Positions 11,462 through 48,177 of a stretch of 64,000 nucleotides of DNA are shown here, in pieces (positions within the stretch are counted from its first letter, which is position 1; every line of letters starts with the position of its first letter). Source of the DNA: Burkholderiales bacterium (lineage in GTDB: Bacteria > Pseudomonadota > Gammaproteobacteria > Burkholderiales > SG8-41). The notes below the pieces were generated by a model. The model ran no database searches and was not told the origin of the DNA. It saw only the letters and a list, made by a program, of their open reading frames with translations. The stretch is from NCBI GenBank assembly GCA_050250695.1, contig JBFWOE010000003.1, positions 4,726 to 68,725 of the forward strand, in the 5' to 3' direction. Made by a program: the position numbers and the translations under genes.

Positions 11462-12148
11462 TCAGTTCACGGACAGCCGGTATCCGGAACTGCGCACGGT
11501 CTGGATCAGCCTGTCATGCCCGGTGGGTTCCAGGGCCTTGCGCAGGCGGCGGATATGCACATCCACCGTACGTTCCTCGACGAACACGTGGTCGCCCCAG
11601 ACCTGGTCGAGCAGCTGCACCCGCGTATAGACCCGTTCGGCATGCGTCATGAAAAAATGCAACAGCCTGAACTCGGTGGGGCCGAGTTGCAGCGGCGCAC
11701 CGTTGCCGGTGACGCGATGGCTGGCGGGGTCCAGCTGCAATCCGGCCAGACTGACAATGTCATCGGTGGCCTGCGGCGTGCGCCGCCGCAACAGCGCCTT
11801 GACGCGGGCATTGAGCTCCCGCGGCGAGAACGGCTTGGTGATGTAATCGTCGGCGCCGGTTTCCAGCCCGGCAAGCTTGTCCTGCTCCTCGGCGCGCGCC
11901 GTCAGCATGATCAGCGGCACGGTCTGCGTCCGCCTGTCGGTGCGAAGGCGGCGTGCAAATTCAATGCCGTTGATGCCCGGCAGCATCCAGTCGAGCACGA
12001 TCAGGTCCGGCAATTCGTCGCGCACCATGCGCAGCGCCTGTTCCGCAGAGTCGGCGCGCAGGGCCCGGTGTCCCGCCAGTTCCAGGTTGCATGCAACAAG
12101 CTCCTGAATGGCCGGTTCGTCTTCCACTACCAGTATCGTCGCTGACAT
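11462..12148 (-). CDS. phoB: phosphate regulon response regulator PhoB (OmpR family)
   Basis: 228 aa. 'ILVVEDEPAI', 'DLIVLDWMLPG' and 'PLIMLTAR...DDYITKPFSPREL' are receiver blocks, and the winged-helix end reads 'VWGDHVFVEERTVDVHIRRLRKAL'. Confidence 0.92.
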   Translation of the reverse strand: MSATILVVEDEPAIQELVACNLELAGHRALRADSAEQALRMVRDELPDLIVLDWMLPGINGIEFARRLRTDRRTQTVPLIMLTARAEEQDKLAGLETGADDYITKPFSPRELNARVKALLRRRTPQATDDIVSLAGLQLDPASHRVTGNGAPLQLGPTEFRLLHFFMTHAERVYTRVQLLDQVWGDHVFVEERTVDVHIRRLRKALEPTGHDRLIQTVRSSGYRLSVN

Positions 12149-12205
12149 GGATGTCCCTGATGCAGTCTATGGGGTTGTTGTGCCCGCGAATATTATGACC
12201 CTGTT

Positions 12206-12223
12206 GTTACGGCACTGTGACAG
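12206..12223 (-). promoter_or_regulatory. candidate Pho box upstream of phoB
   Basis: The minus strand reads CTGTCAC-AGTG-CCGTAAC, two 7-nt direct repeats with a 4-nt spacer (compare CTGTCAT-N4-CTGTCAT). It is followed 8 nt later by CATAAT (12192-12197) and lies 58-75 nt upstream of the phoB ATG. Confidence 0.45.
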
Positions 12224-12339
12224 CTCCGCGACGCATGATCCTAACCCTTTAACTTTTAAGGGTAATTTTGTATTTCTCCGGCCTCGGTTATGATGCGGTA
12301 CCGCGATACGCCGCAATATCACCTAACCACCTGAAACCC

Positions 12340-12717
12340 ATGGCCGGACTCAATAAAACTGTGCCGCAGCCCACTGCAATCACCCTGCACCAGGCATCAC
12401 GTCTGCTGGAGATTTCGTTTGCCGACGGCAAGACTTTCCGCCTGACGTGCGAATTTCTTCGGGTGTTTTCGCCTTCAGCGGAAGTCCGCGGCCACGGACC
12501 GGGACAGGAAGTGCTGCAAACAGGCAAACAGGATGTAACGATCACCGCAGTGGAACCCGTGGGCCAGTATGCCATCCAGCTGCGTTTCTCCGACGGCCAC
12601 GATACCGGCATTTATTCCTGGGACCTGATCTACGACTACGGCTTGAATCAGGAATCGATGTGGCAACAGTACCTGCAGCGCCTGCAGGAAGCCGGCGCCT
12701 CCCGGGAAAAACAGTAA
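12340..12717 (+). CDS. DUF971 (gamma-butyrobetaine hydroxylase N-terminal-like) domain protein
   Basis: 'LEISFADGKTFRLTCEFLRVFSPSAEVRGH' and 'YAIQLRFSDGHDTGIYSWDLIYDYG' are typical of DUF971. I took the ATG at 12340 as start. Confidence 0.75.
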   Translation: MAGLNKTVPQPTAITLHQASRLLEISFADGKTFRLTCEFLRVFSPSAEVRGHGPGQEVLQTGKQDVTITAVEPVGQYAIQLRFSDGHDTGIYSWDLIYDYGLNQESMWQQYLQRLQEAGASREKQ

Positions 12718-12819
12718 TTCATAAATGTTGATTGGTAATTTGTGGGCCGCAGCCCCGGATAACGCGACTCCCTGCTGGCAGTTTTATACCAATCATCATT
12801 TGCCAATTTCCATTCACCC

Positions 12820-13554
12820 ATGACAAAAACCACTGACTTCGGATTCCGCAAGGTCGCCGAGGAGGAAAAGGCGCGCAAGGTCGCCGAGGTATTCGATTCG
12901 GTTGCCGGCCGCTACGATCTGATGAACGACCTGATGTCGGCAGGCCTGCACCGCCTGTGGAAACGCTTCGCGGTCGAACAAAGCCTGGTGCGGCCCGGCG
13001 AACGCGTGCTCGACGTCGCCGGCGGTACCGGTGACCTGACACGGCTGTTCGCACGCCGCGTGGGGGTCGCGGGCAGTGTCATCACCACCGACATCAATGC
13101 CCAGATGCTGCGCCGAGGCCGCGACCGGCTGTTCGACGAAGGGCTGATGGTCCCGGCTGCCCGCTGCGATGCCGAAAAACTGCCGTTCGCCCACGCATCC
13201 TTCGACTGCGTCTGTGTCGCCTTCGGCTTGCGCAACATGACGCACAAGGATGCGGCGCTCGCGGAAATGACCAGGGTGCTGCGCCCCGGCGGCCGCCTGC
13301 TGGTGCTCGAGTTTTCCCGCGTCTGGCAACCACTGGCGCCACTCTACGATACCTATTCGTTCCAGGTGCTGCCGCGCCTGGGCCGGCTGGTGACCAATGA
13401 CGCCGACAGTTACCGCTATCTCGCGGAATCGATCCGCATGCATCCGGACCAGGAAACGCTGAAGCAGATGATGGAACGCGCGGGCCTGGGACGCGTCGAA
13501 TATTTCAATCTCGCCGCAGGTGTCGTCGCGCTGCATCGCGGCATTCGCTTCTGA
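12820..13554 (+). CDS. ubiE: ubiquinone/menaquinone biosynthesis C-methyltransferase UbiE
   Basis: '[43 protein letters not shown]', '[11 protein letters not shown]' and 'FGLRNMT' match UbiE. It sits in the ubiE...ubiJ-ubiB context. Confidence 0.93.
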
Positions 13555-23937: not shown

Positions 23938-24348
23938 ATGCTCTGGATCAAATCCTTCCACCTGCTGTTCGTGATCTCCTGGTTCGCGGGGCTGTTCTAC
24001 CTGCCGCGCATCCTCGTCAACCTGGCGCTTGAAGACAACGACGCGGCCCGTACCCGCCTGCTGCTGATGGCGCGCAAGCTCTACCGCTTCATGACCCTGC
24101 TGGCGGTGCCGGCGCTGGCCTTCGGCCTGTGGCTGTGGCTGGGCTACGGCATCGGCGGCGGCTGGATGCATGCCAAGCTGGTGCTGGTGGTCCTGCTGAT
24201 CGGTTACCACCACGCCTGCGGCAGCCTGCTGAAAAAATTCGAGCAGGGCCGCAACACCCGCTCTCATGTCTGGTTCCGCTGGTTCAACGAAATCCCGGTG
24301 CTGATCCTGCTCGCCACGGTCATCCTGGTCGTCGTCAAACCGTTCTAG
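23938..24348 (+). CDS. hemJ: protoporphyrinogen oxidase HemJ (UPF0093 family)
   Basis: 'MLWIKSFHLLFVISWFAGLFYLPRI' and 'HAKLVLVVLLIGYHHAC' are typical of HemJ. Confidence 0.8.
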   Translation: MLWIKSFHLLFVISWFAGLFYLPRILVNLALEDNDAARTRLLLMARKLYRFMTLLAVPALAFGLWLWLGYGIGGGWMHAKLVLVVLLIGYHHACGSLLKKFEQGRNTRSHVWFRWFNEIPVLILLATVILVVVKPF

Positions 24349-24353
24349 GCTTC

Positions 24354-24752
24354 ATGCCCCGAAAAATTGCCATGTTCGCACTGGCACTGGCCGCCGCCGT
24401 GCTGCCTGCCGCCGCATACGCCACCGACGCACGCATCATCGTCCAGCAGTCGCCGCTCGCGGGTTTCCAGTATTACGAAGGCAAGGGGCTGTGGGACATG
24501 ATGCGCGTCGGCGACATGCTCACGCTGGTGCGCGAACCGCACAATCCTCACGACGCCAGCGCCGTGCGCATCGAATGGCGCGGCGAAATGCTTGGCTACC
24601 TGCCGCGCCGCGAGAATCGTGATGTTGCAAGGCAGATGGACCACGGCGCACCGGTGAAAGCCCGCATCGTCCGGCTGACCGAAGCGCGCAATCCCTGGCA
24701 GCGCATCCGTTTCGAAGTCTATGTCGACCTCGCCCGTGCATCCGGTCAATGA
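24354..24752 (+). CDS. HIRAN domain protein with N-terminal signal peptide
   Basis: 'MPRKIAMFALALAAAVLPAAAYA' is a signal peptide. 'GFQYYEGKG...GDMLTLVREPHNPHDASAVRIEWRGEMLGYLPRREN' is the HIRAN core. Confidence 0.75.
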   Translation: MPRKIAMFALALAAAVLPAAAYATDARIIVQQSPLAGFQYYEGKGLWDMMRVGDMLTLVREPHNPHDASAVRIEWRGEMLGYLPRRENRDVARQMDHGAPVKARIVRLTEARNPWQRIRFEVYVDLARASGQ

Positions 24753-24778
24753 TTGCGCCAACACTCCCTCACCCCCGA

Positions 24779-24801
24779 CCCCTCTCCCAAAGGGCGAGGG
24801 G
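24779..24801 (+). other. GC-rich hairpin (REP-like or weak terminator) after the HIRAN gene
   Basis: CCCCTCTCCC-AAA-GGGCGAGGGG forms a 10-bp stem with one mismatch. There is no clean T-run, and I saw only one copy in the window. Confidence 0.3.
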
Positions 24802-24848
24802 AGATATTTGCGGCAACCGGTCTGCAAGACCAGCTGCCGGAGTCTAGA

Positions 24849-26003
24849 ATGGAACAGTTTTTCGCCACCTGTCCGCGCGGCCTCGAAGGCGTGCTCGGCG
24901 AAGAACTCGCCGCATTGGGCGCGCAGGACGTGAGCCCGGTCGACGGCGGCACCGGCTTCCGCGGCCCCTACGCGCTCGGTTACCGCGTCAACCTCGAAAG
25001 CCGCATCGCCAGCCGCGTGTTGTGGCGCATCGGCCACTGCCGCTACCGCGACGAAAACGACATCTACGCCGCCGCGCGCAAGCTGCGCTGGGGACAGTGG
25101 TTCAGTGCGAACGAAACCATACGCGTGGAAACCGCCGCGATCAAAAGCCCGCTGCAAAGCCTGGATTTCGTCACGCTGCGCGTCAAGGACGCGGTCTGCG
25201 ACGTGCTGCGCGAGGCCGAAGGCAAACGTCCCGACGTCGATACGCGGCAGCCCGATGTGCGCATCCACCTGTTCCTGACCCGCGACGAGGCGGTGTTCTA
25301 CCTCGACACTTCGGGCGATCCGCTGTTCAAGCGCGGCTGGCGCATCGCCACCGGCGAAGCGCCGCTGCGCGAAAACCTCGCCGCCGGCATCCTCAAACTC
25401 GCGGGCTGGACGCCGGAAAAGCCGCTGCTTGATCCGATGTGCGGCAGCGGCACCTTCCTGATCGAAGCGGCATTGATGGCGATGCGCCGCGCGCCGGGAC
25501 TGAACCGGCGTTTCGGTTTCGAGAAGCTGCGCAACTTCGATGCGGCAGCCTGGACCAGGCTCAAGGCCAAAGCCGCGAAAAATGAAAAAACATCAATAAA
25601 ATCAAATATTTATGGATACGATCGCAGCGGCGACGCGATCGCGCAGGCGCGGCAAAACGTCGCCGCGCTGGGACTGGAATCACGCATCGAACTGAAGCAG
25701 TGCAGCTTCGAGGATTCGAAACCGCCAACCGCCAGCGGCGTGCTGATCACCAACCCGCCGTACGGCGTGCGCCTGGAAGAACTCGACGACCTCGCCGCGT
25801 GGTATCCCAGACTCGGCGACATCCTCAAGCAGCGTTACGCCGGCTGGACCGCCTACATCCTCACCGCCGACCTGCGCATCGCCAAGCTGATGCGGCTGCA
25901 GCCGTCGCGGCGCACGCCGCTGTTCAATGGGGCGCTGGAATGCCGGTTGTTCAAATATGAACTGGTCGCGGGCAGCATGAGGAAAAACAAAGAGGGGGCT
26001 TGA
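24849..26003 (+). CDS. THUMP-domain class I SAM-dependent RNA methyltransferase (RlmL N-domain-like)
   Basis: 'MEQFFATCPRGLEGVLGEEL', 'DPMCGSGTFLIEAA' and 'ITNPPYG' match the family. Confidence 0.85.
   Translation: MEQFFATCPRGLEGVLGEELAALGAQDVSPVDGGTGFRGPYALGYRVNLESRIASRVLWRIGHCRYRDENDIYAAARKLRWGQWFSANETIRVETAAIKSPLQSLDFVTLRVKDAVCDVLREAEGKRPDVDTRQPDVRIHLFLTRDEAVFYLDTSGDPLFKRGWRIATGEAPLRENLAAGILKLAGWTPEKPLLDPMCGSGTFLIEAALMAMRRAPGLNRRFGFEKLRNFDAAAWTRLKAKAAKNEKTSIKSNIYGYDRSGDAIAQARQNVAALGLESRIELKQCSFEDSKPPTASGVLITNPPYGVRLEELDDLAAWYPRLGDILKQRYAGWTAYILTADLRIAKLMRLQPSRRTPLFNGALECRLFKYELVAGSMRKNKEGA
25595..25613. repeat. left copy of an AT-only 19-nt direct repeat (AATAAAATCAAATATTTAT), inside the methyltransferase CDS
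   Basis: I aligned it by eye to 28939-28957. 18 of 19 positions are identical, including a perfect 14-mer AATAAAATCAAATA. Confidence 0.8.
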
Positions 26004-26099
26004 CGTGGAAGTCACCAGCGCTGGGCGGCTGCATCGCGCAGCGTCCGCGTGGACTGCCGGGTTGGGCGAAATGTTGTGAATCTCTATGTCTTTCACCAA

Positions 26100-27038
26100 T
26101 TAAAAGATGCCTTGCCCGGTTTCCGACTTTAAAAGTGCCGCAAGCTGAGAACCAGATTTCAATTTTTCGATGAAGGTACAGCCAGCGTTGTCGCGCTGCC
26201 AATAAGGGCACGCCAGAAAATACGTGTCCAAGAGTCCCGTCGCATTCTGTTTGCGGCGAAGCACCATGTTCTCACCATGAACTGGACAGGTTGCCAGTTC
26301 GACTCCGCGATGGCCTTTAGCAAGATCCGACTTCAGATCACGTAGACGCGTGTCGATGACATCTTCCGTACCCTTGTCAGTGAGGATGATGCCAAACTCC
26401 TCGGCCGTCACGGAAAACTCCGGGGCGGTGGTATCGGTCATCAATCCATAGTCGTTGCGTTGCAGTTTCTCGGTATGGATGCAGACCCGCTTATCTCCTT
26501 GATGGATATACCATCCCGTACACCCCCAATAAAAGTCCTTTGGCTCGGCGACCGAAAGATCGCGTTTCCATTGCAGCTTCATCGGTCGACCGCAGATGCG
26601 GCACGCCTTGCCGAGGGTGTCGGCGAAGGCGTTGTACTGGAGAACGTGTGTGGTCTCGAAATCGATGTCAACCTTGTCGATGACACTTTCAGACTCGATG
26701 ATTTTTTCGGCAGCACGAACCTCTTTACCCTGATTGAGTTCTGAAAGCAGTTGATCCCGCTCGACCCGCAGATCATCCCATCGCCGCCGCGCCCGATCAT
26801 TCAGGCCGCCACTCGACATGCGCTGATTTCGCAAATGCATGATCTCGTCGTTCACCGAACGTAAGCGATCTTTCTTGCGGGTCAGGTCATCGACAAAATT
26901 TGCGCCAGTAGCACCGCCTTGCCGCTTGTAGGCTTCATACCCACGCTTGATGTCAGCAATCACTTGAACCGTGGTGTCCACCAGAACACCGAGCAGTGTG
27001 CCAAAGCCATTGGCTAGACGGTCAAGAAAACCCATCAC
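26100..27038 (-). CDS. island gene C: coiled-coil protein with two topoisomerase-type C4 Zn-ribbon-like domains
   Basis: 312 aa. An N-terminal amphipathic/hydrophobic helix is followed by a charged heptad-like region. 'CRICGRPMKLQWKR...FYWGCTGWY...VCIHTEKL' and 'CPVHGENMVLRRK...YFLACPYWQRDNAGCTFIEKL' follow the CxxCG...M.L....F.GC..(Y/W)...C.(F/H) pattern. The start is GTGATG, overlapping the gene B stop. Confidence 0.7.
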   Translation of the reverse strand: MMGFLDRLANGFGTLLGVLVDTTVQVIADIKRGYEAYKRQGGATGANFVDDLTRKKDRLRSVNDEIMHLRNQRMSSGGLNDRARRRWDDLRVERDQLLSELNQGKEVRAAEKIIESESVIDKVDIDFETTHVLQYNAFADTLGKACRICGRPMKLQWKRDLSVAEPKDFYWGCTGWYIHQGDKRVCIHTEKLQRNDYGLMTDTTAPEFSVTAEEFGIILTDKGTEDVIDTRLRDLKSDLAKGHRGVELATCPVHGENMVLRRKQNATGLLDTYFLACPYWQRDNAGCTFIEKLKSGSQLAALLKSETGQGIF

Positions 27039-28018
27039 ACTTCTCCTTGTAGCAACCGGCCTTGTTGCGCCAGTCGCATCGAAAGCATCCGATCGGTATC
27101 CGCACGGTACGATCTGAGGATGGCTTCCTGATTCCAGAAGTGATCAAACAAGAGACCTCCTGCGAATGCAGCAGGGATGGCCAGCAGCCCGCCACCGACG
27201 GCATAGACCGCAGCACCCGCGAGATTCGCCGCAACAATGCGCTGACCTCGGCGGGCAGTCGCCAGTTTGAACTGGTCAAGCGACCGTTGCCCGACCGACA
27301 CCTTGTACCCCTCCCATGTCGCGATTGCGACCAGAGGGAATAGTGGGCTGAAGTAGTCGAGAAATTGATCGGCGACCGAATCGTCCATTACATCGATAGC
27401 CGACGACACCTGGTCACGCAGGTCATCCTCGCTAATGCCGCTATCGAGTACCAATCCAGTATGAGCGACGTCGTGAGTAGCCAGTATCTCTATGTCAGGG
27501 TAGCGATGCAACGCTTCCTTGATGTAACCAGCGCTATCGGTCGCTTTCAGCTGTAAGTAATCGGCGGTTGCACCGTCAGGGCCGATGATACGCATATCCC
27601 AGCCTGGCTGGTTTAACGATTCGGCCAACTCCGCGCGGTAGCCATCCGGCAGTAAGACTGGCCCAACCTGCTCACCGGCGTTCAATCGATCGGCAACCAA
27701 ATACTCGAAGTACTTTCCCTTGGCAGTATTGACAGATCCTTGTAGTTCTTCGTGGCTAAGGTCAAAGAATCGCTCATCTGACAACGATGGGTTCGTGACT
27801 CGGATCGCCTCTACTAGGCGAGGTTCCAAATCTGATCGGTCTTGATCGAGCAATATCTCTGCTGAAGCAGCAGTCAATGTCAGATCGAACAGGGATTCTC
27901 GATTGGCCTTCAAATATCGCTGGAATGCGTCATAGAACTGCTCACCGGCGGGTCGATCACCGACTGCACCATATTGACGACTCAGCATGCTCAACTTGGA
28001 GCTGGGGACAAGACTCAT
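27035..28018 (-). CDS. island gene B: Mrr-like PD-(D/E)xK nuclease-fold domain plus C-terminal glycine-zipper hydrophobic segment
   Basis: 327 aa. 'GKYFEYLVADRL...PGWDMRIIGPDGATADYLQLKAT' carries the E / D / QxK motif order seen in Mrr-type restriction endonuclease catalytic domains. The C-terminal 'IVAANLAGAAVYAVGGGLLAIPAAFAGGLLF' is a Gly/Ala-rich hydrophobic stretch of about 30 aa. The ATG overlaps the gene A stop as ATGA. Confidence 0.7.
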   Translation of the reverse strand: MSLVPSSKLSMLSRQYGAVGDRPAGEQFYDAFQRYLKANRESLFDLTLTAASAEILLDQDRSDLEPRLVEAIRVTNPSLSDERFFDLSHEELQGSVNTAKGKYFEYLVADRLNAGEQVGPVLLPDGYRAELAESLNQPGWDMRIIGPDGATADYLQLKATDSAGYIKEALHRYPDIEILATHDVAHTGLVLDSGISEDDLRDQVSSAIDVMDDSVADQFLDYFSPLFPLVAIATWEGYKVSVGQRSLDQFKLATARRGQRIVAANLAGAAVYAVGGGLLAIPAAFAGGLLFDHFWNQEAILRSYRADTDRMLSMRLAQQGRLLQGEV

Positions 28019-28236
28019 GATGGTTTGACCAAACTACGTATGCTGGCCAATTCCGTCTTGACCCGCTGCAATTCTGCTACCCACCCCGATGCCGAAATGC
28101 CTTCTGGCTCGAGCCCCAGTCCTTCCTCGATCCGGGATACCCGTCTTTCGATCCGCTGAATGAAGGTATCCATGCCCCCCAACACCTCTTCTACCATCAG
28201 TAGGTGCTGTTCAATTTGCGAGCGCAATTCGGTCAT
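28015..28236 (-). CDS. island gene A: small (73 aa) predicted coiled-coil protein
   Basis: Two charged heptad-like helices, 'ELRSQIEQHLLMVEEVL...FIQRIERRVSRIEEGL' and 'WVAELQRVKTELASIRSL', are present. GAGGAA lies 6 nt upstream of the ATG. Coding status is supported mainly by that RBS and the ATGA coupling to gene B. Confidence 0.6.
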   Translation of the reverse strand: MTELRSQIEQHLLMVEEVLGGMDTFIQRIERRVSRIEEGLGLEPEGISASGWVAELQRVKTELASIRSLVKPS

Positions 28237-28266
28237 CGTCAGTTCCTCGAACAGTTTCGTACTGCC

Positions 28267-28488
28267 TCAGCCGGCTTTCACAAGAAAGCTCCCATCCAGC
28301 TCATCAATCCCCGAGCACCTGATCATCACCATGACGCGGTCGATCTCTTCGCGATAGATTTCAATCCCTCTTGCAGCCCCCGCCTCGCCAGCCACCGCTA
28401 GCCCGTAGAGCGTGGCGCGGCCGATCACCACGGCATTCGCGCCCAGCGCGAGGCCCTTGATCACATTCGAGCCGCGGCGAAAACTGCT
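28267..28488 (-). pseudogene. 3'-terminal remnant of an FMN-dependent alpha-hydroxy-acid dehydrogenase (LldD/glycolate oxidase family) gene
   Basis: The frame reads '(stop)ASSFRRGSNVIKGLALGANAVVIGRATLYGLAVAGEAGAARGIEIYREEIDRVMVMIRCSGIDEL'. This matches only the last 70 aa or so of a family whose members are about 380 aa. An in-frame stop lies immediately upstream and there is no N-terminal part. Confidence 0.75.
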
Positions 28489-28548
28489 CGCTTAAAGTAC
28501 CGGAGTAGAAATTTTTATCGGTAATCGTAGACATCACAAAAATATCAG

Positions 28549-28833
28549 CTACGCAGCCAGCTTCATGACCTTCAACTGCTTGCGCCGCTGCTCGGCGTGC
28601 CAGAGATCGTACTGGGTTTGCTGATTGATCCAGCTCTCGGCTGAGGTTCCAAAAGCGATCGACAGGCGCACAGCCATTTCGGGGCTGATGCCAGCGCGTC
28701 CATTCAGGATCGCAGAAAGCGTTTTGCGACTCACATCGAGCGCCTTTGCGGCATGCGTCACCGTAATATTGAGCGGTTCCAGGCAAAGCGCCTTGATGAT
28801 TTCTCCGGGGTGCGGTGGATTGTGCATGCGCAT
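28549..28833 (-). CDS. higA: HigA-family (XRE HTH) antitoxin, orphan
   Basis: '[72 protein letters not shown]' is the typical HigA/VapI sequence. I trimmed the start to the internal ATG at 28833. Confidence 0.85.
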
Positions 28834-28844
28834 GATGCTGCCTT

Positions 28845-28919
28845 TCAGTGAGAGTCCTCGCGTAGCAGTGTAACCAACGGCGTTACAAGTCGGAGCACAA
28901 AATCTGCAATTTTCCACCA
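28845..28919 (-). pseudogene. possible decayed 3' tail of a higB toxin gene
   Basis: The frame ending in TGA 11 nt upstream of the higA ATG reads '[24 protein letters not shown]'. HigB/killer proteins end in '...W(R/K)(I/V)xFxx...(V/L)x(L/I)xDYH*'. No N-terminal part exists, because AT-only DNA begins at about 28921. Confidence 0.25.
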
Positions 28920-28938
28920 AAAACTATATAAATAATTT

Positions 28939-28957
28939 AATAAAATCAAATACTTAT
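28939..28957. repeat. right copy of the AT-only 19-nt direct repeat (AATAAAATCAAATACTTAT) at the island edge
   Basis: See 25595-25613. It sits in a roughly 45-nt AT-only stretch between the higB-like tail and the TauE stop codon. Confidence 0.8.
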
Positions 28958-28971
28958 TATCATTCTCTGGG

Positions 28972-29724
28972 TCAGCGCAACACCCGCAGGATCAGCGACA
29001 CCCCGATCAGCAGCAGCAGCACCCCGATCACCTTCAATAGCGTCTCGCGCGAGGCTTTCAGCTGGATGCGGTGGCCGGCCCAGATGCCGCCGAGCGCGAA
29101 GGGCATCAGCAGCAGCGCGCCGAGGATGCGGTCCCACAGCATCAGGCCGCCGATAAGGAAGACCAGCGCGCGGATCGAGGTCGACAGCAGCACCATGTTC
29201 GACAGCGTGGCGCGCAGCACCGCCTTGTCGGGCAGGCGGCGCGACAGGTAGATCGCGTAGGGCGGCGCGCCGACGCCGAACAGCGTGCCCGCCGCGCCGC
29301 CGCAGAATCCGGAGATCACCGCCCAGGGATGGCGCGCGATGCCGACCTGGGGCGCCCGCGCCAGCAGCGAGTAGATGCCGTAGACGAAGAGGAAGACGCC
29401 GAAGGCGGCGATGGTCGCCTGCTGCGGGATGGTCACCAGAGCGGTGACGCCGGCCACCGCGCCGGCGAGCGAACACGGCGCCATCCATTTCAGTTCGCCG
29501 CGGTCGGCGTCTTTCGAGAATCGCGAGCCCAGCGCAAAAGCCGCCGAGACGTCGAGGATCACGCACATCGGCAGCACGAAATCGAGCGGGAAAAAAAACG
29601 ACAGCGCCGGCACGGTGAACATCGCCGCGCCGAAGGCGGTGATGCCGAAAATGACATAGGAGCCGGCAACGATGGCGGCACAGGCCGCGTAGGTTGCCAG
29701 GCCGAACGGGATATCAATCAACAA
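28972..29724 (-). CDS. TauE/SafE family sulfite/anion exporter
   Basis: 250 aa and polytopic. Repeated 'GAxxG/GGxxG' helices such as 'CGGAAGTLFGVGAPPYAIYL' fit the family. The start in the ORF track is a TTG. Confidence 0.75.
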   Translation of the reverse strand: MLIDIPFGLATYAACAAIVAGSYVIFGITAFGAAMFTVPALSFFFPLDFVLPMCVILDVSAAFALGSRFSKDADRGELKWMAPCSLAGAVAGVTALVTIPQQATIAAFGVFLFVYGIYSLLARAPQVGIARHPWAVISGFCGGAAGTLFGVGAPPYAIYLSRRLPDKAVLRATLSNMVLLSTSIRALVFLIGGLMLWDRILGALLLMPFALGGIWAGHRIQLKASRETLLKVIGVLLLLIGVSLILRVLR

Positions 29725-29735
29725 TATTCACCAAG

Positions 29736-29763
29736 AAAAACGCCGGCCTTGCGCCGGCGTTTT
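29736..29763 (-). terminator. rho-independent terminator downstream of pilU (symmetric A/T flanks)
   Basis: The sequence is AAAAACGCCGGC-CTTGC-GCCGGCGTTTT. It lies 21 nt after the pilU stop. Confidence 0.7.
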
Positions 29764-29783
29764 GCATGAATACAGCCGCAGCA

Positions 29784-30920
29784 TCAGACGAGATTCAAAT
29801 GTTCGATTCCCGTCATCACGTCCTTGTCCTTGGCGTCCTTGCTGTTCAGCTTGATCATCAGCCGCAGCTCGTTCATCGAGTCGGCGTTGCGCAGCGCGTC
29901 CTCGTAGCTGATCTCGCCGGCTTCGTAGAGGTCGAACAGGTGCTGGTCGAAGGTCTGCATGCCCAGTTCGCGCGATTTGGCCATGATGCCCTTGATCTCG
30001 TGCACCTCGCCCTTGAAGATCATGTCGGAAATCAGCGGCGAATTGAGCAGGATCTCGACCGCGGCGGCGCGGCCCTTGCCGTCCTTTTTCGGGATCAGCC
30101 GCTGCGAGATCAGCGCGCGGATGTTCAGCGACAGGTCCATCAGCAGCTGGTGTTTGCGCTCTTCCGGGAAGAAGTTGATGATGCGGTCCAGCGCCTGGTT
30201 GGCGCTGTTGGCGTGCAACGTGGCCATCGCCAGATGGCCGGTTTCGGCAAAGGCAATGGCGTGATCCATGGTCTCACGGTCGCGGATCTCGCCGATCAGG
30301 ATCACGTCGGGCGCCTGGCGCAGCGTGTTTTTCAGCGCGGCGTGCCAGGAATCGGTATCGACGCCGACTTCACGCTGGGTGACCACGCAGTTCTTGTGAT
30401 CGTGCACGTATTCAATCGGATCCTCGATGGTGATGATGTGGCCGTAGCTGTTTTCGTTGCGGTAGCCCATCATCGCCGCCAGCGACGTCGATTTGCCGGA
30501 ACCCGTGCCGCCAACCATGATCACCAGGCCGCGCTTGGTCATCACCACGTCCTTCAGCACCGGCGGCAGCTTGAGGTCGTCGAACTTCGGAATCGAGGTG
30601 TTGATGGTCCGCAGCACCATGCCGACGCGGCCCTGCTGCATGAAGGCATTGACGCGGAAGCGGCCGATGTCGCCGGGACTGACCGCGAAATTGCATTCCT
30701 TGGTCGCCTCGAATTCACCCGCCTGCTTGTCGTTCATGATGCCGCGCGCGAGCTCGGCGGTGTGCTGCGCCGTCAGCGTCTGCTGCGCTACCGGGGTCAT
30801 CTTGCCGTCGAGCTTGATCGCCGGCGGGAAACCCACCGTGATGAACAGGTCGGAGGCCTTTTTCGCGACCATTGCCCGCAGCAGATCGTGCATGAACTTG
30901 ACTGCCTGTTCTCTTTCCAT
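29784..30920 (-). CDS. pilU: type IV pilus retraction ATPase PilU
   Basis: 378 aa. 'ASDLFITVGFPPAIKLDG' and Walker A 'GGTGSGKSTS' are present, as is 'GHLAMATLHANSANQALDRIINFF'. It is downstream of pilT. Confidence 0.9.
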   Translation of the reverse strand: MEREQAVKFMHDLLRAMVAKKASDLFITVGFPPAIKLDGKMTPVAQQTLTAQHTAELARGIMNDKQAGEFEATKECNFAVSPGDIGRFRVNAFMQQGRVGMVLRTINTSIPKFDDLKLPPVLKDVVMTKRGLVIMVGGTGSGKSTSLAAMMGYRNENSYGHIITIEDPIEYVHDHKNCVVTQREVGVDTDSWHAALKNTLRQAPDVILIGEIRDRETMDHAIAFAETGHLAMATLHANSANQALDRIINFFPEERKHQLLMDLSLNIRALISQRLIPKKDGKGRAAAVEILLNSPLISDMIFKGEVHEIKGIMAKSRELGMQTFDQHLFDLYEAGEISYEDALRNADSMNELRLMIKLNSKDAKDKDVMTGIEHLNLV

Positions 30921-30971
30921 GCCTGGCTCCTTCTTGGATCTTGGATATTGCCTGTTGCCGGTGCCGCAAGC

Positions 30972-32012
30972 CTAGCGGAATGCGTCCTTGTTCATCGCCT
31001 TGCCGCGCGCCTCGTCCACCGACACGATGTTGCGCTTGACCAGGTCCTGCAGGTTCTGGTCCAGCGTCTGCATGCCGAGCTGGGCGCCGGTCTGGATCGC
31101 CGAATACATCTGCGCCACCTTGTTCTCGCGGATCAGGTTGCGGATAGCCGGCGTGCCGACCATGATCTCGTGGGCCGCGGCGCGGCCGCTGCCGTCCTTG
31201 GTTTTCAGCAGCGTCTGTGAAATCACCGCGCGCAGTGATTCGGACAGCATCGCGCGCATCATTTCCTTTTCCTCGGCCGGGAACACGTCGATGATGCGGT
31301 CGATGGTTTTGGCCGCGGAACTGGTGTGCAGCGTTCCGAACACCAGGTGGCCCGTCTCGGCGGCGGTCAGCGCCAGGCGTATGGTTTCCAGGTCGCGCAT
31401 CTCGCCGACGAGGATGATGTCCGGGTCTTCGCGCAGCGCCGAACGCAGCGCATTGGAGAACGACAGCGTGTGCGGGCCGACCTCGCGCTGGTTGATCAGG
31501 CATTTTTTCGATTCGTGGACAAACTCGATCGGGTCTTCGACGGTCAGGATGTGCCCCTGCTCGTTTTCATTGATGTGGTTGACCATCGCCGCCAGCGTGG
31601 TCGACTTGCCCGAACCCGTCGGCCCGGTCACCAGCACCACTCCGCGGGGCTGGTTGGCGATTTCGATGAACACCTTGGGCGCCTTCAGGTCTTCCAAGCT
31701 CAGCACCTTTGAGGGAATGGTACGGAACACGGCGCCGGCGCCGCGCTGCTGAACGAAGGCGTTGACGCGAAAACGCGCGAGGTTCGGGATCGCGAAGGAA
31801 AAGTCGCACTCGAGGTTTTCCTCGTAGAACTTGCGCTGGCCGTCATTCATGATGTCGTACACCATGGCATGGACGTCCTTGTGCTCGAGGGCGGGGAGGT
31901 TGATGCGGCGGATGTCGCCGTGCACGCGGATCATCGGCGGCAGCCCGGAGGACAGGTGCAGGTCGGAAGCCTTGTTCTTGACTACGAAGGCGAGCAGTTC
32001 TGAGATGTCCAT
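30972..32012 (-). CDS. pilT: type IV pilus twitching motility ATPase PilT
   Basis: 346 aa. 'ASDLHLSSGLPPMIRVHGD', 'GPTGSGKSTTLAAM' and 'GHLVFGTLHTSSAAKTIDRIIDVFP' match PilT. Confidence 0.93.
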   Translation of the reverse strand: MDISELLAFVVKNKASDLHLSSGLPPMIRVHGDIRRINLPALEHKDVHAMVYDIMNDGQRKFYEENLECDFSFAIPNLARFRVNAFVQQRGAGAVFRTIPSKVLSLEDLKAPKVFIEIANQPRGVVLVTGPTGSGKSTTLAAMVNHINENEQGHILTVEDPIEFVHESKKCLINQREVGPHTLSFSNALRSALREDPDIILVGEMRDLETIRLALTAAETGHLVFGTLHTSSAAKTIDRIIDVFPAEEKEMMRAMLSESLRAVISQTLLKTKDGSGRAAAHEIMVGTPAIRNLIRENKVAQMYSAIQTGAQLGMQTLDQNLQDLVKRNIVSVDEARGKAMNKDAFR

Positions 32013-45863: not shown

Positions 45864-47681
45864 TTACTCCGGTTGCCCCGCGTTGTGAGTGGCATTTTCG
45901 AGGTGCACCCGAACGTACGACCCCGGTGCATCTTCGATGGGACTGAACTTGCCCTTGCCGGGGATGCGTGCGGCAACCTTCGGGCCTGCATGGCGCGCAA
46001 CCCATGTTCCCCAGTCGGTCCACCAGGATCCCGGGTGCTGAACCGCCTCCTTCTGCCATTGTTCGGGATTTTCCGCCAGTTTTTCGTTGGTCCAGTAACA
46101 ATACTTGCCGGCCTCCGGCGGATTGATGATGCCGGCAATGTGGCCGGAACCCCCCAGAACGAAACGCACCGGGCCGCGCAGCAGGCGCGCGCCCGCGTAG
46201 GTCGATTGCCAGGGGGCGATATGGTCTTCGGCTGTTGAAATGAAATAGGCCGGTGTTTTCACCTTGCTGACGTCGATGGGCACGCCCGCCAGGATGATCC
46301 CGCCAGGTTCGCGCAACAGGTTTTTCAGGTACATGTTGCGCAGGTAGAAGCTGTGCATGGACGCGGGCATCCGCGTGGAGTCCCCGTTCCAGTACAGCAG
46401 ATCGAACGGGAAAGGATCGCGCCCCAGCAGGTAGTTGTTGACCACGAATGACCAGATCAGGTCATTGGCACGCAGCATGTTGAACGTCGTCGCCATCTCC
46501 GAGCCTTCAAGATAGCCCCTCGCCTCCATTTTTTTCTCGAGCGCTTCCACCTGCTGTTCATCGATGAACACCTCGAGTTCACCCGGACGTTCGAAGTCGA
46601 TCATTGTCACGAAGAAGGTCGCGCTGCGAACCCGGTCCTGTCGTTTCGCTGCCAGCCACGCCAGCGTGCACGCCAGCAAGGTTCCGCCCAGGCAGTAACC
46701 AATGACGTTTGCCTGAGCCGATCCGGTTATGTCGCGCACCACGTCAAGCGCGGCCAGCGAACCGTCGGTCAGGTAATCGTCAAAAGTCTTGTGAGATAGG
46801 GTCTCGTCCGGATTCACCCACGAAATGACGAATACGGTATGTCCCTGTTCCACGGCCCAGCGCACAAAAGAGTTCTTCTCACGCAAGTCGAGGATGTAGA
46901 ACTTGTTGATCCAGGGTGGAATGATCAGCAGCGGGGTGGCGTGCACCTTATTAGTCAACGGCTCGTACTGGATCAGCTGCATGATGTCGTTCTGGTACAC
47001 CACCTTGCCCCTGGTGGTTGCGATGTTTCCGCCAAGCTTGAACGCGCTGGTATCAGTCATCCGCACACGCAACTGCGCACCGTTGCCGCGGGTCAGGTCT
47101 TCAAGCAGGTTGTTCAGCCCCTTGAGCAGGTTCATCCCGCCCGAGCTGACTGTCTCGCGCATCACTTCAGGATTGGTCAGCAGGAAATTGGATGGTGACA
47201 GCGCATCGATATACTGCCGTGTATAAAATTCCACCTTCTTTGCGGTCTTTTCATCCAGGCCCTCGATGCTGCCGAGGGATTCATGGAGGTGGCGGGCGGC
47301 GATCAGGTAGGACTGCTTGACGTAGTCATACAGGAAGTTGTTTTCCCAGTCGTCATGCTTGAACCGGCGGTCTGCCTGATGCGGTTGCGCCACCGGCGCA
47401 GTTTCCTGGCCCATCATTTTCAGCATTGAGGTCTGCCACAGGCTCATGTATTCCTGCCACAGCTTCATCTGCATCTCGGCAACGCGCAGCGGATCGGCGA
47501 ACATGCGGCCCCAGGCCTCGAAAAAAGCCTTGGCTATGCCCAGTTCGTCGCTGACACCCGGCAGACCGGAGCCGCGTGACATGTAACTGGTCAGCAGAGC
47601 AGCACTTTTTTCGGCGATTTCGGCATAAATTTTGGACAGCGACGGTGTCTCAGGGGCTGCTTTCTGGTGTTTCTCGGGCAT
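45864..47681 (-). CDS. phaC: class I poly(R)-hydroxyalkanoate synthase
   Basis: 605 aa. 'PLLIIPPWINKFYILDL' and the lipase box 'GYCLGG' are present. '...GGSGHIAGIINPP' gives the catalytic His region. Confidence 0.92.
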   Translation of the reverse strand: MPEKHQKAAPETPSLSKIYAEIAEKSAALLTSYMSRGSGLPGVSDELGIAKAFFEAWGRMFADPLRVAEMQMKLWQEYMSLWQTSMLKMMGQETAPVAQPHQADRRFKHDDWENNFLYDYVKQSYLIAARHLHESLGSIEGLDEKTAKKVEFYTRQYIDALSPSNFLLTNPEVMRETVSSGGMNLLKGLNNLLEDLTRGNGAQLRVRMTDTSAFKLGGNIATTRGKVVYQNDIMQLIQYEPLTNKVHATPLLIIPPWINKFYILDLREKNSFVRWAVEQGHTVFVISWVNPDETLSHKTFDDYLTDGSLAALDVVRDITGSAQANVIGYCLGGTLLACTLAWLAAKRQDRVRSATFFVTMIDFERPGELEVFIDEQQVEALEKKMEARGYLEGSEMATTFNMLRANDLIWSFVVNNYLLGRDPFPFDLLYWNGDSTRMPASMHSFYLRNMYLKNLLREPGGIILAGVPIDVSKVKTPAYFISTAEDHIAPWQSTYAGARLLRGPVRFVLGGSGHIAGIINPPEAGKYCYWTNEKLAENPEQWQKEAVQHPGSWWTDWGTWVARHAGPKVAARIPGKGKFSPIEDAPGSYVRVHLENATHNAGQPE

Positions 47682-47716
47682 TGTTTTCTGGATTTCAGGA
47701 AATTATTAAATATTGA

Positions 47717-47728
47717 CGTTTACGTAAG
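47717..47728. promoter_or_regulatory. candidate MerR/LiuR-type operator, copy 1 (phaC / merR-like divergent region)
   Basis: The sequence is tgaCGTTTACGTAAGgg. It shares ACGTTTACGTAA with the perfect palindrome at 48195-48208 and lies 51-62 nt upstream of the regulator ATG. Confidence 0.5.
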
Positions 47729-47778
47729 GGAAATGTTATTTTTCCATCGCATATTACCTGCGGTTGCTGCGGAGCACA

Positions 47779-48177
47779 ATGAGCAAAACCTATACGATCA
47801 GCGATCTGGCGCAGGAATTCGGTGTCACTACGCGTACCTTGCGCCACTATGAAGACCAGGGACTAATCACTCCGCAAAGGGATGGCATCAACCGCATTTA
47901 CAGCCACCGTGACCGGGTCAGGCTGAAACTCGCCCTGCGCGGCAAGCGCTTGGGATTCTCCCTCAGCGAAATCCGTGAACTGTTCGAATTATACGACCTG
48001 GCCAACGATGAGCGACGGCAGCTGGAAGAATTTGCGGTCAAGCTCGAGCGGCACCGCTCACAACTGATCCAGCAACGTGAGGATGTAGAAGTCATGCTCA
48101 ATGAAATCAATTTTTTCGCCAATCAGTGCCAGCGACTTCTGAACGAGTCTGAGCCGGCCAAAACGCAGGAGCGGTAG
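47779..48177 (+). CDS. MerR-family transcriptional regulator (LiuR-like by context)
   Basis: 'YTISDLAQEFGVTTRTLRHYEDQGLI' is a MerR HTH, followed by a coiled-coil dimerisation helix. It lies upstream of leucine-catabolism-type genes. Confidence 0.85.
   Translation: MSKTYTISDLAQEFGVTTRTLRHYEDQGLITPQRDGINRIYSHRDRVRLKLALRGKRLGFSLSEIRELFELYDLANDERRQLEEFAVKLERHRSQLIQQREDVEVMLNEINFFANQCQRLLNESEPAKTQER

Follow-up and report, generated by a model that had tools for sequence, protein, structure and literature searches.

A compact three-gene cassette encoding a predicted PD-(D/E)xK nuclease and a zinc-ribbon protein is an unnamed candidate defence system

The window analysed here, a stretch of 64,000 nucleotides from a Burkholderiales bacterium, contains three genes on the minus strand, designated A, B and C, which are packed with overlapping stop and start codons (Table 1). 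The open reading frames and the overlap sequences were confirmed as originally predicted: A and B share the sequence ATGA at 28015-28018, and B and C meet in GTGATG at 27033-27038. Public gene calls start gene C at the ATG at 27035-27033, resulting in the shorter product of 311 aa, and given this start codon, the TGA of gene B shares one base with the ATG of gene C. The same overlaps of 1-4 nt recur in homologous A-B-C loci. Comparison with the closest relative yielded dN/dS values that correspond to strong purifying selection (A, 0.10; B, 0.065; C, 0.061). Because these values lie at 0.06-0.10, we regard A, B and C as real genes. A promoter and terminator scan of positions 25900-29100 detected nothing promoter-like and a single terminator-like site within gene C, which was not above chance.

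Table 1. Position and properties of the cassette, its genes and the features of their products
Feature	Position	Strand	Description or basis
Whole A-B-C cassette	26100..28268	minus	unit of DNA similarity common to other genomes; ~2.15 kb
Gene A	28015..28236	minus	ORF, 73 aa; helical protein; conserved core HLLMVEEVLGGMD
Gene B	27035..28018	minus	ORF, 327 aa; predicted nuclease with C-terminal hydrophobic segment
Gene C	26100..27035	minus	311 aa from ATG (312 aa from GTG, 26100-27038); two zinc ribbons behind an amphipathic N-terminus and a coiled coil; conserved KLKSGSQLAALLK helix at the C-terminus
Predicted PD-(D/E)xK core, B residues 89-180	27479..27754	minus	conserved motifs and AF2 secondary structure
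B core residue E105	27704-27706		
B core residue D141	27596-27598		
B core residue Q156	27551-27553		
B core residue K158	27545-27547		
Gly/Ala-rich hydrophobic segment IVAANLAGAAVYAVGGGLLAIPAAFAGGLLF, B residues 261-291	27146..27238	minus	hydropathy and conservation
Long helical (coiled-coil) region, C residues 46-117	26688..26903	minus	AF2 helices 46-76 and 81-117
Zinc ribbon 1: C146, C149, C173, C186 (CxxCGRPMKLQW...FYWGCTGWY...C)	26481..26603	minus	ligand conservation
Zinc ribbon 2: C251, H254, C277, C287 (CPVHGE...YFLACPxW...GC)	26178..26288	minus	ligand conservation

The G+C content at 26-29 kb is 0.536-0.545, and this region is the longest low-G+C stretch of the window and the sole one with foreign genes. 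The earlier statement that it is the only low-G+C stretch at all was wrong, as illustrated by the 1-kb bins 1-1000, 12001-13000 and 47001-48000 with values of 0.55-0.56. The ORF translations of these bins resemble housekeeping genes, as judged by eye without a family scan.

At least 395 homologues of gene B were found among 8000 scored candidates; most of the 120 matches listed are 325-334 aa long, and none of these carries a Pfam domain. The family consists of 884 clusters (50% identity, E<=1e-3), all without annotation, and longer variants of 430-515 aa contain no fusion to A or C. The motifs FE, GWD and LQLK, from which an Mrr-type PD-(D/E)xK domain had been proposed, are indeed present in B. 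Within 114 relatives that are 25-56% identical to B, residues G101, E105, D141 and K158 are invariant, and K100, K102, F104, W140 and Q156 are conserved to at least 90%. The protein therefore contains the conserved E...D...(D/E/Q)xK motif by which PD-(D/E)xK enzymes are recognised. An AF2 model predicts a helix at 89-113, strands at 128-131, 142-145 and 151-155, a second helix at 162-172 and a further strand at 177-179, and this alpha-beta-beta-beta-alpha-beta order accommodates the motif residues (mean pLDDT 56; block means of 61-82 over residues 61-160 and of ~40 over 161-180). The alignments used for modelling B and C contained 45 and 42 homologues, respectively, and were too shallow and too similar. 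Because the resulting models are poor (mean pLDDT of 56 and 61.5), the nuclease fold of B and the zinc-ribbon class of C are assigned from their motifs.

No Pfam Mrr_cat profile or clan member matched B or any of the 114 relatives, which showed four DUF413 matches and one Annexin match as their sole Pfam hits. Sequence and profile searches of the PDB with B (phmmer, hmmsearch) identified no nuclease; those with B and C returned chance or coiled-coil matches, including a designed repeat protein. Foldseek of the B model (pLDDT 56) against the PDB produced nothing with an E value below 1, and hhalign of the B core against the N-terminal nuclease domains of three HsdR proteins from the fetched loci gave a probability of 0.1%, with sequences that were too few and too distant for an informative comparison. 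Of the proposed Mrr-type PD-(D/E)xK assignment, the motif order is thus borne out, with residues that are invariant or nearly so in the 114 relatives, whereas the affiliation to Mrr has neither a Pfam nor a structural match. From the invariant motifs and the modelled secondary structure, B is predicted to be a PD-(D/E)xK nuclease.

The Gly/Ala-rich hydrophobic segment that had been noticed behind this core was located at residues 261-291, where the Kyte-Doolittle hydropathy reaches 1.6-1.84 in a 19-residue window. Of 111 superfamily members, 81% have an equivalent window of at least 1.6 located ~108 residues past the QxK motif, with a median of 1.76. The segment is modelled by AF2 as two helices interrupted at GGG 274-276; by its hydropathy it is only marginally transmembrane-like, and it could instead be a buried oligomer interface. 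Its retention across the superfamily and the striking GxxxG runs of some relatives, e.g., P0363, would fit abortive infection by membrane damage, in which the glycine-zipper-like segment, perhaps together with the N-terminal helix of C, oligomerises into a pore or lesion after foreign DNA has been detected by the nuclease-like and zinc-ribbon domains, and cleavage is secondary or serves solely for sensing. The defence neighbourhoods described below would fit such a role equally well. However, the hydropathy of the segment is marginal, the two hydrophobic stretches of 13-15 residues in the modelled helix-turn-helix are too short for spanning the bilayer twice, and the invariance of E105, D141 and K158 together with the near-invariance of Q156 argues for catalysis over mere binding. 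We therefore consider membrane damage an unlikely main activity and prefer DNA cleavage by B.

Gene C has 272 homologues, and those among the 120 listed are mostly 310-313 aa long. The AF2 model (block means of 62-90 over residues 41-100) agrees with the long coiled coil proposed originally, and this region obtained weak coiled-coil-type database matches alone. The N-terminal helix had been described as hydrophobic, but its hydropathy maximum of 1.49 is below the usual transmembrane threshold; values of at least 1.6 occur in 32% of the homologues, and the helix is amphipathic in distant ones, which speaks against a transmembrane segment. All eight zinc ligands are invariant in 42 homologues, and the conserved ligand pairs flank predicted short strands, as is generally characteristic of zinc ribbons (AF2 strands at 259-262, 273-276 and 290-292 for ribbon 2). 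While the two ribbons predicted earlier were thus recovered, their assignment to the topoisomerase type stayed below threshold: Zn_ribbon_Top1 matched a distant C homologue with E 0.0077 and 16.4 bits versus a cut-off of 32, and zf_Rg matched a distant homologue with E 0.14. Ribbon 1 itself matched Pfam Zn_ribbon_recom with E 1.2e-3 and 19.6 bits, below the cut-off of 25.3, and phrog_16932 with E 7e-7. The best Foldseek match of C in the PDB was the Zf-GRF domain of APEX2, which was not significant (E 0.88).

For gene A, we found 547 homologues with a length of 75-81 aa and no family match in PADLOC, Pfam, NCBIfam or PHROGs. Its EEVLxGMD motif is retained in clades in which B is 38-50% identical.

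Comparison of positions 24000-31000 with all fetched loci by blastn showed that every alignment ends at 26041-26116 on one side and at 28224-28268 on the other, and that the flanks outside A-B-C are shared with no fetched locus. Because the DNA similarity is confined to 26100-28268, we conclude that the cassette moves as a unit, and it brings hardly any upstream sequence with it. Together with the foreign G+C content, this supports the earlier view of a horizontally acquired patch. The conservation of gene order, a check suggested along with the original prediction, was evident in ~35 independent loci at identities down to 35-40%, with the order intact wherever the contig extent permits and a range from Betaproteobacteria to a cyanobacterial MAG. 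Every detected copy of gene C lies directly 3' of B; the gene is lacking where three contigs end, as well as from the two B-like loci that are most distantly related. The distribution is patchy, with closely related cassettes in distant taxa (82-94% amino-acid and 75-90% nucleotide identity). Gene B was not found in 50,697 phage records or in IMG/VR, and two weak plasmid matches came from single- or two-gene relatives; therefore, the cassette is not typically phage- or plasmid-borne.

In other genomes, the cassette is recurrently located in or beside known defence systems, which is one operational mark of a defence system and agrees with the conflict or defence module proposed from the window. 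In nine loci (L001, L019, L021-L025, L028, L029), it is embedded in type-1 BREX systems, flanked by pglX and pglZ. It follows PglX in one more locus, which was recorded twice (L006/L020) and whose contig ends after C; it also adjoins BrxR-BrxC. PsyrT and PsyrA (PADLOC E values of about 1e-290 and 1e-140) are adjacent to the cassette in both orders and represent its immediate neighbours in 7 of 38 reference-genome loci as well as in L001 and L004. A type I HsdR gene follows 167 bp past C in L037 and farther away in L039 and L026. Distant homologues have neighbours including Zorya II, mad3 and AriA, and HamC-like, HicB (HicAB, in L050) and MNT-like (in L001) genes were encountered as well.

These arrangements would also be expected if the trio were an auxiliary nuclease working solely with its host operon, BREX and/or PsyrTA. 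Such an accessory role is consistent with the insertion between PglX and PglZ, with the codon overlaps of the cassette with PglX (8 nt, in L006) and with PsyrT, which overlaps the stop codon of C by 1 nt in L001, and with the near lack of upstream DNA. In addition, PD-(D/E)xK nucleases are recurrent BREX auxiliaries according to a 2026 survey, which names generic embedded REases alone and not the trio (PMC12839542). However, the cassette occurs without either system in the window, in L050, where it likewise stands alone, and in L045, and it is also found beside type I restriction-modification and Zorya II systems. Because the BREX-embedded cassettes show three different arrangements, the trio appears to be a separable module, and we regard a dependence on BREX or PsyrTA as improbable. 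The BREX-embedded loci may trace back to a small number of insertions. PsyrTA is in turn considered a separate module because its order relative to the trio varies. A single five-gene system consisting of PsyrTA and the trio was rejected for this variable order and for the occurrence of the trio without PsyrTA.

In the window itself, the cassette stands alone beside a gene for a HigA-family antitoxin at 28549-28833 (TIGR02607, E 1e-32). No HigB ORF is present beside this gene, which is separated by just ~140 bp from a TauE gene; without an adjacent toxin gene, it does not constitute a type II toxin-antitoxin (HigBA) pair, in accordance with the toxin-antitoxin remnant noted originally. A neighbouring remnant of 65 aa is the C-terminal fragment of an FMN-dependent dehydrogenase. 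The presence of toxin-antitoxin genes near the cassette (HigA here, HicB and the MNT-like gene elsewhere) and of a small, tightly coupled gene upstream of a nuclease-like protein could point to an addiction module which stabilises genomic islands, with B as the toxin, A and/or C as neutralisers and no primary role in phage defence. We consider this quite improbable: three conserved components including a zinc-ribbon protein of 311 aa are atypical of toxin-antitoxin pairs, and none of them matched a toxin-antitoxin family in PADLOC or Pfam. Moreover, many toxin-antitoxin systems are defence systems, so this explanation overlaps with the preferred one of a defence cassette. A role outside of conflict, for instance in DNA uptake, repair or processing at the membrane, by genes hitch-hiking in variable regions is very improbable, since the patchy distribution with related cassettes across distant taxa, the foreign G+C content, the consistent embedding in defence operons and the lack of any link to competence or repair operons outweigh the fact that zinc ribbons and PD-(D/E)xK domains are found in repair proteins too.

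The trio is therefore well supported as an unnamed candidate defence system, for which we infer function and mechanism. It very probably represents a candidate defence module centred on a hydrophobic-tailed nuclease and its zinc-ribbon partner, and we lean towards a self-contained anti-phage or anti-plasmid cassette that is spread horizontally and often resides inside other defence operons. The defence function itself, the formation of a complex, its membrane association, the sensed signal and the cut target are what we infer in the following scheme. Translational coupling would supply A, B and C in a fixed proportion for assembly into a single complex, in which B would be the effector with an active PD-(D/E)xK nuclease. 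Its Gly/Ala-rich hydrophobic hairpin may keep B attached to or embedded in the inner membrane, or else within an oligomer. C would act as a sensor or adaptor that uses its pair of zinc ribbons to bind nucleic acid, with single-stranded DNA or foreign DNA that is entering or replicating as the most plausible ligand, and its coiled coil and amphipathic N-terminus may link this binding to B. As a small coiled-coil subunit, A might pair with the coiled coil of C and silence B until infection, and sensing would then lead to DNA cleavage by B. Only tentatively do we extend this to the proposal that the trio founds a new autonomous defence family, in which a PD-(D/E)xK nuclease, tethered to the inner membrane by a glycine-rich hairpin, is under the control of a coiled-coil/zinc-ribbon DNA sensor and a small coiled-coil lock. 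Such a complex would cut foreign DNA that is entering the cell or starting replication, would operate without methylase or NTPase, and would travel as a cassette that lacks a promoter and inserts into BREX, PsyrTA and type I restriction-modification loci.

Provided that it confers phage or plasmid protection, the cassette would represent a compact addition to the bacterial immune repertoire, ~2.1 kb in size and without ATPase or modification enzyme. The cassette encodes no NTPase, methylase or other known device for discriminating self from non-self; candidates for this discrimination are the membrane location or the recognition of DNA structure by the zinc ribbons. A function established for one member of the large, unannotated B family would extend to many hypothetical proteins, and the repeated insertion in BREX or beside PsyrTA offers a useful case for studying the cooperation between embedded modules and the systems that host them.

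Searches of PADLOC, Pfam, NCBIfam and PHROGs with A, B and C identified no named system, as had been suspected, and in the literature we found neither a named system matching the trio nor experimental data for any member. B resembles Mrr and other PD-(D/E)xK enzymes in its motif order of a helix with FE, followed by D and QxK, all invariant or nearly so, and differs from the Mrr type by lacking a winged-helix DNA-binding domain and by carrying the hydrophobic tail. The ribbons of C share the four ligands and the CxxCG...F(Y/L)xC...C spacing with Zn_ribbon_Top1 and zf-GRF domains, but all matches are below the curated cut-offs, and ribbon 2 has one Cys replaced by His. The proteins of PsyrTA (RqlHI), a RecQ-like helicase-PRTase and a DprA-like protein, are unrelated to the trio. 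Zorya combines ZorAB with a ZorC/D nuclease module, and Kiwa consists of the membrane protein KwaA and KwaB. A possible likeness to both lies in a membrane-located complex with a DNA-targeting component and no modification enzyme, provided that the trio is located at the membrane as we propose; the trio is unrelated to them in sequence, has no PADLOC match to Zor or Kwa proteins and contains no MotAB-like stator.

The closest relationship was found to PDC-M72, a two-gene phage defence candidate of PADLOC (CAS_00220 FAM_01979>>FAM_01904; Payne et al. 2024, bioRxiv 10.1101/2024.01.29.577857). Residues 83-209 of B match PDC-M72B (PDLC04784, E 1.7e-19; PDLC04785, E 2.3e-13), as do all 114 diverse B relatives with a best E value of 3.7e-24, and both PDC-M72 and the cassette were found embedded in BREX-type systems. 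Membership in PDC-M72 was rejected for the missing PDC-M72A component, which matched neither A nor C (E<=1) nor their homologues in L001 and L004 (E<=0.01). Furthermore, the cassette has three genes instead of two, and B exceeds PDC-M72B by an N-terminal region of 85 aa and a hydrophobic, helical C-terminal region of 110 aa. Because B matches with modest scores and over its nuclease core alone (positions 29-147 of the 193 in the profile), we conclude that B represents a sister family of PDC-M72B.

Genes A, B and C are tightly coupled, and both stop/start overlaps proposed for them are present in the window sequence: in the ATGA at 28015-28018 the TGA of A lies within the ATG of B, and in the GTGATG at 27033-27038 the start region of C is overlapped by the TGA of B. 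Public gene calls on the same DNA give C a length of 311 aa by starting at the ATG at 27035, in agreement with the MSFF or MGFF N-termini among C homologues. The dN/dS values versus the closest relative (locus L007) are 0.10 for A, 0.065 for B and 0.061 for C, and all three genes are under strong purifying selection. On the minus strand, the codons 5' of the ATG of A (28237-28260) read K-L-F-E-E-L-T, matching homologue N-termini (MFEELTM..., MKLFEELTM...), with the start codons of the homologues replaced in the window by CTG (28252-28254) and ACG; translation of A in this genome begins at an internal Met, served by the ribosome-binding site GAGGAA.

Coordinates of the three cassette genes in the window
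Feature	Position	Strand	Description
gene A	28015-28236	minus	ORF, 73 aa
gene B	27035-28018	minus	ORF, 327 aa
gene C	26100-27038	minus	ORF, 312 aa counted from GTG

The G+C content over 26-29 kb is 0.536-0.545 versus about 0.64 around it. Calling this the only low-G+C stretch of the window was overstated, because three further 1-kb bins are almost equally low (0.554, 0.564 and 0.546); their ORF translations, judged by eye without a family scan, are PhaC-like, MerR-like and PhoB-like and look like housekeeping genes. The trio is bounded by TauE/PilTU on one side and an RlmL-type methyltransferase on the other, and an orphan antitoxin/XRE HTH gene of the HigA family comes before it (28549-28833, minus strand; TIGR02607, E 1e-32), with no HigB partner. 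The roughly 140 bp of AT-rich DNA upstream of the HigA-family gene are the sole obvious promoter place, and such a promoter could also drive the cassette. Of an FMN-dependent dehydrogenase, just the C-terminus is left, as a 65-aa ORF at 28267-28464 (minus strand; Pfam FMN_dh 289-348 of 350, E 5.6e-16); this remnant lies directly upstream of A and shares the reading frame of A, with the TGA of the remnant and ten codons in between. A 28-nt AT-rich direct repeat (25586-25613 and 28930-28957, 82% identical, 3344 bp apart), with one copy within the gene of RlmL type and its partner upstream of the HigA-family gene, may be a chance likeness of AT-rich DNA or the trace of an insertion.

Mrr-like PD-(D/E)xK nucleases share the pattern E...D...QxK, and the Mrr-type domain predicted for B was borne out at the level of these residues. 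Among 114 relatives (25-56% identical to B), G101, E105, D141 and K158 are invariant, and conservation of K100, K102, F104, W140 and Q156 is 90% or more. The AF2 model, of low confidence overall (pLDDT 56; block means of 61-82 over residues 61-160), shows an alpha-beta-beta-beta-alpha-beta unit in which the conserved residues fall on a helix, where strand two begins and where strand three ends. Pfam, NCBIfam, PHROG, PDB sequences and Foldseek returned no match backing a nuclease fold, and the sole library match was PADLOC PDC-M72B (residues 83-209, E 1.7e-19), common to all 114 relatives. The expected Gly/Ala-rich hydrophobic segment was found about 108 residues past QxK with Kyte-Doolittle values of 1.6-1.84 (19-residue window); it scores at least 1.6 in 81% of the superfamily and is modelled by AF2 as a helix-GGG-helix hairpin.

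C contains a coiled coil of about 70 residues and two four-ligand zinc ribbons with all ligands invariant, as proposed, whereas its supposedly hydrophobic N-terminal helix is conserved, glycine-containing and amphipathic, and not clearly transmembrane. The assignment of the ribbons to the topoisomerase type is weakened, as every family match was below threshold: Zn_ribbon_Top1, Zn_ribbon_recom and, by fold, Zf-GRF. A C-terminal KLKSxxQLxxLL helix of C is highly conserved, and A, small and helical, has EEVLxGMD as its invariant core.

Scoring of the best 8000 candidates gave at least 395 B homologues; the 120 listed are mostly 325-334 aa long, and all of these are unnamed and free of Pfam domains. 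An exhaustive profile search with B yielded 884 clusters (50% identity) at E<=1e-3 and 179 at E<=1e-30. C has 272 homologues (mostly 310-313 aa among the 120 listed) and A has 547 (75-81 aa). A scan of one genome per species gave 38 loci, and tblastn and HMM searches found adjacent genes in A-B-C order wherever the contig permits, even at B identities of just 38-50% (Luteimonas, Aliiglaciecola and a Synechocystis MAG). No A or C gene accompanies the B-like genes at the greatest distance (L041, L042); the one in L042 (9488-11999) is a 498-aa single-gene relative that combines the B nuclease core and a hydrophobic tail with a long extension at the N-terminus, and it is followed by a gene whose translation is WYL-like by eye, without a family library scan.

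DNA similarity between the window and all other loci stops at 26041-26116 and 28224-28268, and flanks are common to the window and other loci in no case; therefore, the cassette of 2.15 kb, including hardly more than 20-30 bp upstream of A, is the moving unit. The B family was not found in phage records or IMG/VR and is nearly missing from plasmids. Closely related cassettes of 57-88% amino-acid identity on short contigs (L008, L011, L013, L027) belong to MAGs assigned to Anaerolineales, Terracidiphilus, Planctomycetales and Saccharibacteria, reflecting either recent cross-phylum transfer or mis-binned contigs. Distant B-core relatives occur on Rhodobacterales plasmids of Yoonia (L055 4092-5621) and Sulfitobacter (L056 3187-4561), as a single gene of 509 aa in one case and, in the other, as a two-gene pair that adjoins a DUF262 (GmrSD-like) gene and may be of the PDC-M72 type.

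Type-1 BREX systems house the trio between their pglX and pglZ genes in nine loci (L001, L019, L021-L025, L028, L029); at a tenth place (L006 = L020) it follows pglX, and the contig stops after C. The gene order takes three forms: PglX-ABC-PglZ, PglX-PsyrT-PsyrA-ABC-PglZ and PglX-ABC-PsyrT-PsyrA-PglZ. PADLOC identifies the helicase beside the trio as PsyrT (E about 1e-290) and the DprA-like protein as PsyrA (E about 1e-140). PsyrTA also accompanies the trio outside BREX, beside an integrase (L004). Direct adjacency in both orders was seen in L001 (9922-13432), L004 (4192-7759), L019, L021, L022, L024, L025, L027 and L028, and a functional tie is possible. Start/stop overlaps join the trio to PglX (L006) and PsyrT (L001, where the start of PsyrT overlaps the stop of C), suggesting that it is probably transcribed within the host operon. 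In the closest clade (82-94% identity), a HamC-like DUF3223 gene and further genes lacking annotation flank the trio, which lies beside BrxR-BrxE-BrxA-BrxB-BrxC. The unannotated flanking genes (two upstream, of 169 and 211 aa, and one of 177 aa downstream) are conserved in L046 (8591-9732 and 11941-13255), L010, L012, L013, L015 and L047-L049, in some loci followed next by the DUF3223 gene (PADLOC HamC2, E 4e-85); this set is absent from the window and may either extend the trio or form another uncharacterised defence cassette. Neighbours in the distant clade include type I HsdR (in L026, L039 and, 167 bp past C, in L037), Zorya type II ZorA/B/E, mad3 and AriA.

The conserved A-B-C order and the BREX and PsyrTA neighbourhoods support the overall reading of the original prediction, and we consider a defence or conflict module rather probable. 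Tight coupling and co-conservation suggest that A, B and C form one complex, the invariant catalytic-type residues argue for an active nuclease as effector, the zinc ribbons would let C recognise nucleic acid, and the hydrophobic hairpin of B points to membrane tethering or oligomerisation. Because the trio contains no methylase or NTPase, discrimination must rest on where or in what form DNA is met. In the model that we favour, the trio would be a membrane-associated nuclease complex held silent by A and C, and binding of entering or replicating foreign DNA by the ribbons of C would release the nuclease; we offer this particular mechanism tentatively, at somewhat below even chances. The glycine-rich segment of B could instead kill by membrane damage. 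The trio could also be a toxin-antitoxin-like addiction module or have a non-conflict role. An auxiliary nuclease acting only alongside BREX or PsyrTA would fit the embedded copies and is contradicted by stand-alone ones, beside HicB (L050), within an element carrying primase and IS3 transposase genes (L045), and in the window.

The trio matched no named system in PADLOC (2023), Pfam (2025) or NCBIfam (June 2026), and literature searches found no published description, although a very recent one may exist. A 2026 BREX survey (PMC12839542) gives embedded PD-(D/E)xK nucleases in generic form only. PDC-M72 is a two-gene candidate without experimental test from a 'guilt-by-embedding' study (bioRxiv 10.1101/2024.01.29.577857); the core of B (83-209) resembles its B component, but the defining PDC-M72A was not found with the trio, which rules out their identity. 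The trio would belong to a known kind, the defence-island cassettes with a predicted restriction-endonuclease-fold effector, and its three-protein architecture is unnamed in these PADLOC, Pfam and NCBIfam releases. It makes a good candidate for experiment, yet one among many candidate defence systems.
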